NCBI RefSeq assembly: GCF_947492405.1 | Contig: NZ_CANLMP010000008.1 | Coordinates: 225,435 to 289,434 of the forward strand | Direction of reading: 5' to 3' | Origin: an uncultured Aquimarina sp. | GTDB lineage: Bacteria > Bacteroidota > Bacteroidia > Flavobacteriales > Flavobacteriaceae | Length of the DNA: 64,000 nucleotides | Program-made: the position numbers and the translations under genes | Shown here: positions 5,998 to 8,699 of the stretch, in pieces | Layout of the letters: each line of letters starts with the position of its first letter | Numbering within the stretch: the first letter of the stretch is position 1 | Notes under the pieces: model-generated | Databases searched by the model: none | Seen by the model: only the letters and a program-made list of their open reading frames with translations | What the model was told of the DNA's origin: nothing

Positions 5998-6038
5998 TTC
6001 CTACTCTATTTAAAAAGAGGCTTTTCAGATTCCGCCTT
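5998..6038 (-). promoter_or_regulatory. Repeated leader element, copy 1
   Basis: Identical to 8660-8699 except for one extra A; ends 21 nt upstream of the ATG at 5976. Confidence 0.7.
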
Positions 6039-6064
6039 ATAATTACCAATAAAGTTTATTGAAA

Positions 6065-6406
6065 TTACCAGCTAAATAATTTCCCACTACCTTTATAGAA
6101 AGTTGTGCCAAATGCCTCTACATCAACAGTATAATCTAATTCCTTTTTATCAAAATTAGCTGTTATCGTTACTTCTGCTTCTGCTTCTGCGATACCAACA
6201 CTACCTCCTAGTGTTGCAGATGGGTGTTCTGGATTGATTACAACGTGACCAATTGAGTACCCATGTAGTGTAGCATTAGCGGTCAATTGAGGTATTGATA
6301 AATCTAGGTCATATGTTATAGTTAGTGGTCCGAAACTTTTAGTTCCACTGATTTGATTACCAAGTGACTTTCTGTCAACTGGATGATGAATTAGTTCTTT
6401 AGACAT
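6065..6406 (-). CDS. Hypothetical beta-rich protein (113 aa)
   Basis: Alternating hydrophobic/polar strands, no signal peptide, inside the co-oriented cassette. Confidence 0.6.
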   Translation of the reverse strand: MSKELIHHPVDRKSLGNQISGTKSFGPLTITYDLDLSIPQLTANATLHGYSIGHVVINPEHPSATLGGSVGIAEAEAEVTITANFDKKELDYTVDVEAFGTTFYKGSGKLFSW

Positions 6407-6424
6407 AATTTAAAATGTTTAGTT

Positions 6425-6462
6425 TTCTTATTCTTATTTAAGAGAGACTTTAATGATGCCTT
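6425..6462 (-). promoter_or_regulatory. Repeated leader element, degenerate copy
   Basis: TTCTTATTCTTATTTAAGAGAGACTTTAATGATGCCTT aligns with the two near-identical copies; 18 nt upstream of the ATG at 6406. Confidence 0.45.
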
Positions 6463-6628
6463 TAAAGGAAAGTTTGTTTTTTGAGTGTATTTTGACTCTA
6501 CTTTATTTCAATTTCCGGATTATTAGGTTTTCTCTACTATTTTTTTTGTAGCTTCCTATTGAAGAATCAAAAAGAGGTTATTATAGTATAGCTTATTTTT
6601 AGTTTAAATAACCTGAGCTACATTAGAC

Positions 6629-8173
6629 TTAATTGGTAGTATTAAGTTTAAATATTTGAAAAGCCATACTATTTTCAATAATTGAATCTCTACCTAATAA
6701 TTGCCCTGTAGAAAATGCAAGTTTATTTCTAACATGTAAGTAACCAGTAGGGTCTGCAGGAGAAGGGGAAATATACATACGATGAAATGAAATGATATCA
6801 CCTGAATTTATGGGATTCTCAATTGAATCATCAAAATACTCTATACGATTTTTAATTCTCCATATATTTGATTTTTTTAGATCTTTTCCTAATATATTAG
6901 AATTATTTGCTGCTGAAACCCATCCGTGATCAGGGTTTGCACCCTCTCCATTAAGCTTATATCCAGTTTTTAAATTAGTCAATGTGATTAAATCTGTAAG
7001 AGCAAAGGGTTTCCCCTTTTTTTCTAAATCTGCATGTTCTATCTTCCAGACATATTGAGAATAATTCTTAGCATATAAATCCAAAAACTCATTAATGCTA
7101 ACTGTAGAGTTTAACGATTTCATAATAGTTTGTGTGGAAACTGGATTGTTGGATTGAACTAACATTGGAGGAAGATCATTCCCTGTTTTATCTGACAAAG
7201 CACATATACAAATCAAATCACCATCAGATATTTGGCTAGCCCCCAAATCTCTTCCATTAGATTGTATATAGGAATTCAAAAAAGTTTGGAAACTTTCTTT
7301 AGTCTCCTCTATATTAGATTTTTTTGGGAAATAATTTGCATTAAAGAAAAAGCTATGATCGATTAATGTTACCTCAATAGGTACAGGATTATTATCTACT
7401 GATTCTAACCAAGTGTCAAAATCACGACTAGATGTCCCCCCAAGATATTTAATATCTGTTTTTTGAGATTCTATATCTTTTAAAAAGCTATCATTTATTC
7501 CTACACTTTGGTGTAAGCCTCCTTCTACTTCTACCATTTTTAGTACTCCTGAAGCCTGTGCACTAATATCTACACCAAGCTCAGACAGTTTAGCCATACT
7601 TTTAGCTTTTAAGATAAAAGTTTGTTTACCTACTCCACCTAAAGTAACTGTAGATGAGAAATGTGTTCCATATTTTTTCACAAAGGAATTAAATTTGTTT
7701 TGACTACTAGCAGCACTCCAAAGCGTATTTTGGAATGTAGAATCCAATGGGGGAGGATTTGAACTGTCCTCATTTATTAAAGAGATTTTTTTTGTTTTAC
7801 GTGTCGAAGTAGTTAATGTAGTTACCTGTTTTTTTGACAAATCATTTTTAACTAGTGAGTTTACTTCAGTACTAAGACTGCCGCTATAGGCTAGATAATT
7901 TGCTTTTGCATTTACAGCCGTTTTTAATTTGGTTTGGTAACTTTGACTCGAAGAAATAACATTATTACTTGATTGCCCTATAGTTAAAGCCTCCGTTGTG
8001 GTTCTTGACCATTTATCAATATTATTAGTCGTGAAATTAAAAGCTGAACTTTCTTTTGTTCCTGTGCGTTTTTCTCCTTTTTGTAATGGATATGATTCCT
8101 TTTCACCAAGAGAAAACTGATCCAAATATAGTATGTCGTAGCAATGTCCAATCCAGATGTTATCGATATTCAT
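6629..8173 (-). CDS. MACPF/CDC pore-forming protein with C-terminal MIR/beta-trefoil-like domain, no signal peptide
   Basis: MACPF signature YGTHFSSTVTLGG (7634-7672), N-terminal GxCYD, downstream LGG and W-x-x-S-V-x-x-N-P-V-P-I; threefold GD/TD-LI repeats in the C-terminus. Confidence 0.85.
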   Translation of the reverse strand: MNIDNIWIGHCYDILYLDQFSLGEKESYPLQKGEKRTGTKESSAFNFTTNNIDKWSRTTTEALTIGQSSNNVISSSQSYQTKLKTAVNAKANYLAYSGSLSTEVNSLVKNDLSKKQVTTLTTSTRKTKKISLINEDSSNPPPLDSTFQNTLWSAASSQNKFNSFVKKYGTHFSSTVTLGGVGKQTFILKAKSMAKLSELGVDISAQASGVLKMVEVEGGLHQSVGINDSFLKDIESQKTDIKYLGGTSSRDFDTWLESVDNNPVPIEVTLIDHSFFFNANYFPKKSNIEETKESFQTFLNSYIQSNGRDLGASQISDGDLICICALSDKTGNDLPPMLVQSNNPVSTQTIMKSLNSTVSINEFLDLYAKNYSQYVWKIEHADLEKKGKPFALTDLITLTNLKTGYKLNGEGANPDHGWVSAANNSNILGKDLKKSNIWRIKNRIEYFDDSIENPINSGDIISFHRMYISPSPADPTGYLHVRNKLAFSTGQLLGRDSIIENSMAFQIFKLNTTN

Positions 8174-8235
8174 AATTAAATTGTTTAGAAATGGTCAGGT
8201 ATAATACCTAACCATTTATTATTAAAAAAAATAAT

Positions 8236-8637
8236 TTATTTAGGGTTGATGTTAATTGTAGCGCTTAGGTTTGCCGAGTCTCCATTTTCTGGCATGACAA
8301 TATTTGGGTTTATACTGAAATTGTTATTAAAGTGAGAATTTCCAGTTAAAGATGCGCTATTACTTCCATCATATGGCATATCAAAATTTAAGGTAAGTGT
8401 TGCCACTTTATTCTCAGATAACTTATATGACCAACTTGCGTTTCCAACTAAACCAGTCCAGGTGCCACTTGTTCCCACTCCGCTACAGGCTGTTCCTGTA
8501 TATGTAGATGGAGCTATGTCATTGCATGCTGTTGCTTTTCCAGAACTTGTAAACATTCCATTTTGAGTAAACTCAATTGTAGAATTATTTTGGATTCCTA
8601 ATGTTAGATTGAAATTACTATCTTCTGTTACTTTCAT
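8236..8637 (-). CDS. Aegerolysin/Cry34-like small beta-sandwich protein
   Basis: LTLGIQNNS strand at the N-terminus, GTWTGLVG and LNFDMPYDGSN resembling the aegerolysin (W/F)D-x-P-(W/Y)-x-G-x-N motif; 133 aa; immediately upstream of MACPF. Confidence 0.6.
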   Translation of the reverse strand: MKVTEDSNFNLTLGIQNNSTIEFTQNGMFTSSGKATACNDIAPSTYTGTACSGVGTSGTWTGLVGNASWSYKLSENKVATLTLNFDMPYDGSNSASLTGNSHFNNNFSINPNIVMPENGDSANLSATININPK

Positions 8638-8659
8638 AATTAAAAATTTATAGATTAAA

Positions 8660-8699
8660 TTCCTACTCTATTTAAAAGAGGCTTTTCAGATTCCGCCTT
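8660..8699 (-). promoter_or_regulatory. Repeated leader element, copy 2
   Basis: Minus strand AAGGCGGAATCTGAAAAGCCTCTTTTAAATAGAGTAGGAA; ends 22 nt upstream of the ATG at 8637. Confidence 0.7.

Follow-up and report, generated by a model that had tools for sequence, protein, structure and literature searches.

The 40-nt element that recurs in front of toxin-cassette genes in the 64-kb stretch of DNA analysed here (the window) is almost certainly the DUF805b RNA motif (Rfam RF02914). In the genome-wide and Rfam covariance search that an earlier note on this DNA had suggested, both intact copies cover the full model (positions 1-35) and score above its gathering score of 35.6 bits, and all near-invariant bases of the family are present in both. 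The reading favoured here, with moderate confidence, is that of a cis-acting leader pseudoknot working after transcription, most probably at translation initiation. The element is neither new nor specific to the cassette; as it is already catalogued, the two copies extend the list of known instances and do not define a new class. The motif was reportedly described in the 2017 survey by Weinberg et al. A literature search found no functional study or functional test of DUF805 or DUF805b, and a transcriptome paper on F. psychrophilum, together with its 10 supplements, makes no mention of DUF805b.

Copies of the element in the window

The window contains exactly two instances of the 26-nt minus-strand core AAGGCGGAATCTGAAAAGCCTCTTTT, one at 6013-6038 and one at 8674-8699, against a chance expectation of 0 in 100 shuffles. 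The sole difference between the two intact copies is one extra T (U) in the linker of copy 2, and sequence identity between copies ends at the borders of the 40-nt motif. The end of copy 1 lies 22 nt before the ATG (8637) of the 133-aa ORF, and that of copy 2 lies 21 nt before the ATG (5976) of the 79-aa ORF, which bears out the earlier claim of an element of about 40 nt repeated at a set distance before cassette start codons. Copy 2 begins 26 nt after the stop codon of the 113-aa ORF, with no terminator found between them. No copy was found by alignment in the region upstream of the MACPF gene (ATG 8173).

Table 1. Features of the cassette and its leaders, in window coordinates
Feature	Position	Strand	Evidence or remark
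DUF805b RNA copy 1	8660..8699	-	Rfam RF02914 45.2 bits; own covariance model R1 49.8 bits
DUF805b RNA copy 2	5998..6038	-	Rfam RF02914 43.7 bits; R1 50.5 bits
Decayed relative of the element (third copy)	6425..6462	-	Alignment score 32; R1 only 4.5 bits
133-aa gene led by copy 1	8236..8637	-	AlphaFold2 model (pLDDT 86.9) and Foldseek
514-aa MACPF gene	6629..8173	-	Pfam PF01823, E 5.7e-19
113-aa ORF, decayed copy in front	6065..6406	-	No known family
79-aa ORF led by copy 2	5737..5976	-	No known family
16-bp palindromic terminator-like hairpin	5691..5730	.	Separates the cassette from the convergent yifB-like gene
Conserved box ATTCGATTAAGTAGCCACTA	8813..8832	-	113 nt upstream of copy 1

The degenerate third copy, ending 18 nt before the ATG (6406) of the 113-aa ORF, also stands, though it reaches just 4.5 bits (E 3.1) with R1, our covariance model of the family, and is absent from the Rfam matches even at E<=10. 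Its local alignment with an intact copy scores 32, far above the null of 15.6 +/- 3.2 obtained from 3000 other 64-nt upstream regions of the same genome, and it is therefore taken as a real relative of the element; in that sample the score was equalled only by two true DUF805b leaders. Three loop bases and several family-invariant positions are lost, the loop being shortened to AUCAUUAAA and the tail reading AAGAAUAAG.

RNA structure and covariation

The set used to assess covariation comprises 135 instances (130 distinct rows) drawn from about 70 genomes. It was taken from the highest-scoring matches and includes paralogous arrays and orthologues, so that the counts are inflated by relatedness. 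Column counts over this set give a family consensus with the loop GGAAnCYGAAAA and the 3' tail AGAGUARG. In copy 1, nucleotides 8698-8695 pair with 8682-8679 (AGGC/GCCU) to form the stem, the loop is GGAAUCUGAAAA and the tail AGAGUAGG, and the pseudoknot joins UCU of the loop (8690-8688) to GGA of the tail (8663-8661) through U-A, C-G and U.G pairs.

The AGGC/GCCU stem noticed earlier is real and covaries across the set: of the 4-bp hairpin the model retains three pairs, which are 99.7% paired. Two of the stem pairs show 40 and 58 double-sided changes; the counts at pair 6-23 are GC 88 and AU 36, and those at pair 8-21 are C-G 71, G-C 35, A-U 17 and U-A 6. The 3-bp loop-tail pseudoknot (nCY with RGn'), which was not included in the search model, is 94.4% paired and has two-sided changes at two of its three pairs (pair 13-43: AU 58, UA 28, GC 12, GU 12, CG 4; pair 15-41: CG 94, UA 17, UG 14). 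The covariation score was matched by 0 of 500 shuffles, and slid controls drop to 8-53% paired. In minimum-free-energy folding the element does not stand out, since the two window copies give z values of -0.94 and +0.11 relative to shuffled sequences, so it is covariation that carries the structural case. Since both stem and pseudoknot covary, the element appears to act as RNA and not as an ops-like DNA signal or promoter, and action in cis at the RNA level is very probable.

Across instances, hairpin and AGAGTA are separated by a linker of 4 to 11 nt. The unpaired bases G9, A11-12, G16, A17-20 and AGAGUA are highly conserved, which would fit specific protein or ligand recognition as well as ribosome recognition. 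An ops-like GGCGG signal, proposed in the earlier note, is not supported: GGCGG is not a conserved word, because its C closes the stem and changes in step with the base it pairs with, and the second G of the following GG varies. Nor is there the invariant ops word (GGCGGTAG...) of RfaH-type signals, only G7 and G9 being invariant and position 10 being G in 100 of 135 instances. Two further candidates were dropped, an additional CUCU...AGAG hairpin that the long linker could form in the window copies but that other copies do not conserve, and CsrA-like GGA recognition, as the loop GGA is not invariant.

Family, distribution and position before start codons

The window copies share with DUF805b, which is placed in clan CL00115 together with the DUF805 motif, the same stem, loop, tail, orientation, gene-upstream position and phylum. 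Their linkers are longer than those of most copies (10-11 nt versus 4-6 nt), and they lead toxin-cassette genes rather than the DUF805 membrane proteins from which the motif takes its name. The nearest DUF805b copy is hundreds of kb away from the sole DUF805-domain gene of this genome (PF05656, C1:419660-419932).

Seventeen copies are found in this genome and about 765 matches in the genus Aquimarina, distributed over 82 of 91 genomes, and viral contigs also carry genuine matches. Co-regulation of the cassette, as once suggested, loses its footing with a motif that is not cassette-specific. Genome-wide scatter with no link to start codons had been named as the outcome that would speak against a leader element; the scatter is there, but the link to start codons persists. 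The distance from the end of the pseudoknot to the ATG has a median of 22 nt and a 10th-90th percentile range of 18-29 (n=124), and the element is oriented with the genes, in agreement with the proposal of a shared 5'-leader RNA element. Tandem arrays have one copy per gene, and in about 30 of 132 instances a co-directional ORF ends 30 nt or less upstream.

Apart from its A-richness, the 22-nt spacer between pseudoknot and ATG is unconserved. It contains 3% G, with A at positions -13..-11 in 78-87% of cases (55-58% genome-wide) and at -3 in 80% (49% genome-wide); A at these positions of the initiation region raises translation in Flavobacterium johnsoniae (Baez et al. 2019, PMC6847099). Immediately downstream of the element come the A(-14..-11) tract and A(-3), which stimulate initiation in F. 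johnsoniae, so that it may be compared with translational enhancer or standby elements and with the A-rich "Kozak-like" initiation regions of the Shine-Dalgarno-independent Bacteroidota. The same study describes no upstream pseudoknot, and we infer a role of DUF805b in initiation.

The canonical Bacteroidota -7 box (TAnnTTTG) yielded only 12 exact matches in 123 upstream regions, scattered rather than at a fixed distance. TTTG alone is partially enriched 7/6 nt before the stem (-7/-6; 17 of the 123); no promoter could be placed by this search for either window copy. A scan for sigma-70-type promoters was uninformative (19 found, 18.7 expected). The transcription start would lie upstream of the motif, which would be part of the mRNA.

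Genes downstream of DUF805b copies

About 60% of the genes led by DUF805b encode Gly-Gly-leader, Cys-rich peptides, including lanthipeptide precursors. Among 115 complete downstream ORFs, 75 are of 80 aa or shorter, and 68 of these 75 have a GG/AG leader-type motif; 21 further downstream ORFs are lipoprotein-like. In this genome, 10 of the 17 copies stand ahead of Gly-Gly-leader, Cys-rich peptides, three of them in a LanB/LanC cluster. NCBIfam gave only sub-threshold leader matches for six DUF805b-led peptides (TIGR04149, NF038153 and NF047798, E 0.006-0.03), and the "bacteriocin-like" reading therefore draws on sequence features and the LanB/LanC context. DUF805b also leads phage genes of other kinds, ParB-like and nuclease genes among them, which fits a generic expression element.

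The toxin cassette

The model of the 133-aa protein matches, in a Foldseek search of the PDB, Cry34Ab1 (TM 0.70/0.78), ostreolysin A and pleurotolysin A (TM 0.61-0.68) and FraC (E 6.7e-6), and is that of an aegerolysin/actinoporin-like beta-sandwich. No Pfam or NCBIfam match was found for the protein, the Pfam aegerolysin family being absent at E<=0.01. The MACPF gene starts 62 nt after the 133-aa gene, which is the first gene of a predicted aegerolysin-like/MACPF toxin operon, in which, as in pleurotolysin-type systems, a MACPF protein is encoded beside a small predicted aegerolysin-fold partner. The pairing is kept in 3 of 3 homologous loci examined, all from metagenomes, and so is the DUF805b leader before the partner gene, of 132-134 aa, in the same 3 of 3 MACPF loci. 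No MACPF homologue was found in 90 genomes of the genus, nor by a pattern scan of the genome contigs. The 113-aa ORF has no homologue in those 90 genomes at E<=1e-3; a 113-aa ORF beside a MACPF homologue was considered as its counterpart and rejected as unrelated.

Transcription of the cassette, from one or more starts, likely ends at the terminator-like hairpin. At the other end, the box ATTCGATTAAGTAGCCACTA has exact or 1-mismatch copies in some 16 further genomes of the genus. Of 13 such loci retrieved, 11 have a DUF805b leader 11-18 nt downstream of the box; among the 13, one duplicates another and one has a degenerate leader. The box is probably part of the cassette promoter or operator. 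A LytTR response regulator and a TPR kinase are encoded directly upstream of the cassette.

Proposed mechanism and alternatives

DUF805b is an H-type pseudoknot of roughly 35-40 nt in the predicted mRNA leader. Its 4-bp stem encloses the conserved loop of 12 nt and is followed by a linker of variable length and the conserved tail, whose RGn' pairs with loop nCY. Transcribed together with the downstream gene, it would act in cis and post-transcriptionally. The folded element would lie where the 30S binding site begins on its 5' side, directly before the A-rich tract by which initiation is promoted in Bacteroidota that do not depend on Shine-Dalgarno pairing. Whether it acts at translation initiation specifically is an even call. 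In the window, the intact copies lead the aegerolysin-like gene and the 79-aa gene, and the copy ahead of the 113-aa gene has decayed.

Among the alternatives at the RNA level, the pseudoknot may be an operator for a trans-acting RNA-binding protein or small RNA, which would switch genes for exported antagonism products on or off post-transcriptionally as one regulon (toxin subunits, lipoproteins, and precursors of bacteriocins and lanthipeptides). About 20 nearly invariant unpaired positions would suit such a factor, as would the skew of gene content towards short leader-type peptides, lipoprotein-like ORFs and peptides of the LanB/LanC cluster, but the instances were sampled from the highest-scoring matches and include paralogous arrays, no candidate binding protein was identified, and phage ParB-like, nuclease and many unrelated genes carry the element too; the idea is unlikely. 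Equally tentative is its broader form, in which DUF805b would be no passive leader but the common switch of a post-transcriptional regulon, read by a protein, an sRNA or a small ligand; it would coordinate how Flavobacteriia make exported antagonism products (precursors of lanthipeptides and bacteriocins, the aegerolysin-like/MACPF toxin, lipoproteins), and their phages would have copied it. It is improbable that the element stabilises the 5' end of the mRNA or marks a processing boundary, its compact fold blocking 5'-end-dependent decay or insulating the unstructured initiation region from upstream RNA. A -7-box-like TTTG 6-20 nt upstream in many loci would place the motif near the transcript 5' end, as would the conserved box 11-18 nt upstream in 11 loci, and precursor-peptide mRNAs need high steady-state levels; yet the distance to putative promoters is variable (113 nt in the window), and neither the narrow distance to the ATG nor the invariant loop bases would be necessary for a stabiliser.

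The preQ1-I riboswitch is a minimal H-type pseudoknot aptamer of about 35 nt whose loop pairs with the 3' tail. DUF805b resembles it and other small aptamers in size, in its hairpin with loop-tail pairing and in its conserved unpaired bases. That it is itself a very small ligand-binding riboswitch is nevertheless very unlikely: no metabolic theme unites the downstream genes (RiPP-like peptides, lipoproteins, toxin subunits, phage ParB-like proteins), the spacer lacks conservation apart from its A-richness, and, unlike preQ1-I, the element is neither associated with a consistent set of genes related to a ligand nor followed by an expression platform in the form of alternative pairing, a terminator or sequestration of the start codon. 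Signals of the LoaP/RfaH type comprise ops DNA and the leader hairpins of antibiotic gene clusters, and DUF805b is similar in being a small conserved leader element ahead of natural-product and toxin genes. Unlike them, it lacks a conserved ops word, precedes mostly single short genes, has no terminators to be read through and is a pseudoknot that covaries as RNA. Any DNA-level signal is highly improbable, slightly more so than a riboswitch, be it a promoter read by an alternative sigma factor, a binding site for a transcription factor such as the neighbouring LytTR regulator, ops-like antitermination or a recombination site for cassette assembly. The LytTR regulator and TPR kinase next to the cassette, GGAAAC-like words in the loop and the 2.6 kb flanked by two 40-nt direct repeats would suit such readings. 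However, compensatory changes in stem and pseudoknot have no rationale in DNA recognition, GGCGG is not conserved, most copies lie far from any LytTR gene, and the linker varies by 7 nt (4 to 11 nt), a spacing too inconstant for a two-box sigma-factor promoter. Assembly or excision of the cassette by recombination, raised in the earlier note, fares no better, as identity between copies stops at the 40-nt edges and nothing points to a recombinase.

Significance

In Aquimarina, DUF805b marks mostly unannotated Gly-Gly-leader peptide genes, lanthipeptide precursors among them, and could therefore serve as a cheap flag for small-peptide genes in genome mining. The bacterial aegerolysin-like/MACPF pair led by DUF805b is of interest in its own right. 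Bacteroidota do not use Shine-Dalgarno pairing, and a pseudoknot at a fixed distance from an unusually strong A-rich initiation region is a candidate for gene-specific translational control in this phylum.

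Results

By covariance-model match, the repeat in front of the cassette genes is an already known RNA family: Rfam cmscan assigned both intact copies, over the whole 35-position model, to RF02914, DUF805b RNA (cis-regulatory, clan CL00115), at 45.2 bits (copy 1) and 43.7 bits (copy 2) with a gathering score of 35.6 bits, and the element had therefore been catalogued before. The copies differ only in one U, and their shared 26-nt core has exactly two occurrences in the window, where 0 are expected, both on the strand that encodes four consecutive ORFs. Copy 1 ends 22 nt before the ATG of the 133-aa ORF, copy 2 starts 26 nt past the stop of the 113-aa ORF and ends 21 nt before the ATG of the 79-aa ORF, and a similar third sequence lies 18 nt ahead of the ATG of the 113-aa ORF, which confirms the arrangement described in the earlier note. 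This third sequence resembles the intact copies significantly (local alignment score 32 versus 15.6 ± 3.2 across 3000 upstream regions elsewhere in the same genome); it lacks three loop bases and no longer matches at several invariant positions, scores 4.5 bits against a covariance model of the family, is absent from the Rfam listing even at E ≤ 10, and is read as a decayed DUF805b copy. No copy precedes the MACPF gene, which starts 62 nt behind the 133-aa gene.

Features of the toxin cassette and its surroundings (window positions)
Feature	Position	Strand	Remark
Candidate promoter/operator box	8813-8832	minus	20 nt, ATTCGATTRAGTAGCYACTA, with palindrome AGTAGCTACT inside
DUF805b copy 1	8699-8660	minus	intact
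133-aa ORF	8637-8236	minus
Hairpin in aegerolysin-like/MACPF gap	8189-8217	minus	13 bp, no clear U-tract
514-aa ORF	8173-6629	minus	MACPF
Third copy	6462-6425	minus	decayed
113-aa ORF	6406-6065	minus
DUF805b copy 2	6038-5998	minus	intact
79-aa ORF	5976-5737	minus
Terminator-like hairpin	5691-5730		16-bp perfect palindrome flanked by A/T runs, between convergent yifB-like gene and 79-aa ORF
3' end of yifB-like gene	5571-5626	plus
Repeat of yifB 3' end	12204-12259	plus	56 nt, 86% identity, 6.6 kb downstream

DUF805b is not peculiar to the cassette. The source genome (6.37 Mb, 46 contigs) holds 13 copies over the cut-off and four slightly under it, after which scores fall to 16 bits, and about 765 hits were found across the genus, in 82 of 91 species genomes (at most 24 per genome); none of 14 control genomes scored at the same threshold. 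The suggestion that the element specifically co-regulates this cassette is thus wrong.

The search model was built from the 17 copies of the source genome with the hairpin as the only structure included; it yielded 135 matches, from about 70 genomes of the genus plus three metagenomic loci, which were aligned. The hairpin stem is paired in 99.7% of cases with abundant compensatory changes, one pair occurring as C-G 71, G-C 35, A-U 17 and U-A 6 times. A pseudoknot between loop nCY and tail RGn' (UCU with GGA in both window copies) is paired in 94.4% of cells; since it was left out of the search model, the search itself did not select for this pairing. Both sides change at two of its three pairs (first: A-U 58, U-A 28, G-C 12, G.U 12, C-G 4; second: C-G 94, U-A 17, U.G 14), the covariation score was reached by none of 500 shuffles, and sliding the partners as a control lowers pairing to 8-53%. 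The linker between hairpin and tail ranges from 4 to 11 nt, the long form being that of the window copies and of leaders of orthologous genes. Folding energies alone do not set the window copies apart (z -0.94 and +0.11); the case for the structure is comparative, drawn from aligned sequences.

From the end of the pseudoknot to the ATG the median distance is 22 nt (10th-90th percentiles 18-29, n=124). This spacer contains 3% G, and A occupies positions -13 to -11 in 78-87% and -3 in 80% of cases, versus 55-58% and 49% in 2725 long ORFs of the source genome. In Flavobacterium johnsoniae, which initiates without Shine-Dalgarno pairing, the same A positions stimulate initiation (Baez et al., ribosome profiling and gfp reporters; PMC6847099). 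In tandem arrays each gene has its own DUF805b copy, and a co-directional ORF ends at most 30 nt upstream in about 30 of 132 instances, upstream ORFs being counted stop to stop, some possibly spurious.

A search for a promoter at fixed distance upstream of DUF805b found none. At G000:C1:1175600-1175643 in the source genome, a sigma-54-like TGGCACGCCATTTGG stops about 20 nt short of a DUF805b copy located in front of the gene for a 214-aa secreted protein, which suggests that the leader is used behind differing promoter types. The 20-nt box upstream of copy 1, preceded by about 40 nt of further conserved sequence (ATTTGTA..TGTAATCAAAAAC), recurs with at most one mismatch in about 16 further genomes of the genus; at 11 of 13 such loci (L359-L371) it stands 11-18 nt ahead of a DUF805b leader, and in the window 113 nt ahead of copy 1. 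Genes behind box and leader are unrelated and mostly lack signal peptides, and a response regulator and kinase stand directly upstream only in the window and at locus L362. The box may be the promoter or operator of a transcriptional regulon that would be superimposed on the RNA leader. The sole terminator-like hairpin of the cassette follows its last gene and is probably a bidirectional terminator; it yields spurious microRNA-family hits in Rfam.

In the source genome, 10 of the 17 copies precede ORFs of 45-71 aa whose Lys-rich leader ends in GG/AG and whose core is rich in Cys. Three of these ORFs, one directly upstream of lanC, lie within a class I lanthipeptide cluster encoding LanB (N and C parts) and LanC. 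This cluster (G000:C2:918000-936000) also encodes two TPR-AraC regulators, a DCC1-like oxidoreductase and an ABC/FtsX exporter, its three DUF805b-led precursor-like genes being 45-61 aa long. Among 115 complete downstream ORFs, 75 are at most 80 aa long, 68 of these having a GG/AG-type leader motif, 21 are lipoprotein-like and the remainder are diverse, fractions that are indicative only, because the sample consists of top-scoring hits with paralogues; matches to curated leader families are weak. The 80 loci fetched from IMG/VR viral contigs contain 61 genuine DUF805b-type matches with the same covariation; 7 of 49 viral downstream ORFs match ParB-like PHROGs, further ORFs match nucleases, a protease or a methyltransferase, and some are unknown genes.

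No known family matches the 133-aa protein, whose predicted model (pLDDT 86.9) matches Cry34Ab1 (TM 0.70/0.78), ostreolysin A/pleurotolysin A (TM 0.61-0.68) and actinoporins, and the next gene encodes the MACPF protein. Together, this aegerolysin-fold protein and the MACPF product of the gene that directly follows look like a pleurotolysin-type two-component pore-former; both lack a signal peptide. The gap between them folds at -16.8 kcal/mol (z -4.9), and its hairpin could be an attenuator or processing site setting the ratio of the two components.

The remaining 90 genomes of the genus contain neither a MACPF homologue nor the toxin pair; four MACPF homologues (55-64% identity) are present in a large protein collection. 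At the three metagenomic loci examined (L126, L127, L129), one to three partner genes of 132-134 aa lie directly upstream, each locus adjoins a two-component system, and DUF805b precedes the partner genes (23.9-40.1 bits), so the leader has moved along with the gene. The yifB-like product is 95% and 94% identical to those of Aquimarina sp. SS2-1 and A. addita. Synteny with Aquimarina relatives breaks exactly at the yifB end, which is repeated downstream; judged by these two features, a segment comprising the toxin cassette, the LytTR regulator gene, the TPR kinase gene and an ORF of 170 aa resembles an insertion at the yifB 3' end, and no integrase was seen within this segment. One MACPF homologue lies next to a run of six tRNA genes and another is flanked by group II intron fragments (L127 7317-8377; L129 1-243, 606-683, 6675-6983), which hints that such loci lie in mobile or hotspot regions.

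Discussion

Compensatory changes together with a linker of variable length speak against a two-box promoter or DNA word and argue for an RNA fold, bearing out the 5'-leader RNA with a genuine stem proposed in the earlier note. Its ops-like GGCGG does not hold, as it is not conserved as a word and its C is a covarying stem base. A DNA-level signal, be it ops, promoter or recombination site, is hardly credible, and assembly of the cassette by recombination is judged wrong. Among RNA-level readings, a minimal riboswitch seems very improbable and an mRNA stabiliser unlikely, while an operator for a putative RNA-binding factor that would govern a regulon of exported antagonism products is a possible, if doubtful, explanation.

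From the position of the fold and the composition of its spacer, we infer, with about even confidence, that DUF805b is a cis-acting mRNA leader working at translation initiation; the literature searched contained no experimental test of its function. A compact pseudoknot placed at the 5' border of the site where the ribosome lands could help to recruit the 30S subunit or, alternatively, prevent upstream structure from intruding on the A-rich initiation region. Such a leader would suit genes whose products are needed in large or stoichiometrically tuned amounts, for instance precursor peptides, or the aegerolysin-like partner in proportion to MACPF. What is modestly new for this known family is the tie of DUF805b to RiPP-type peptide genes and an aegerolysin-like/MACPF toxin, along with a concrete hypothesis of its role in translation.
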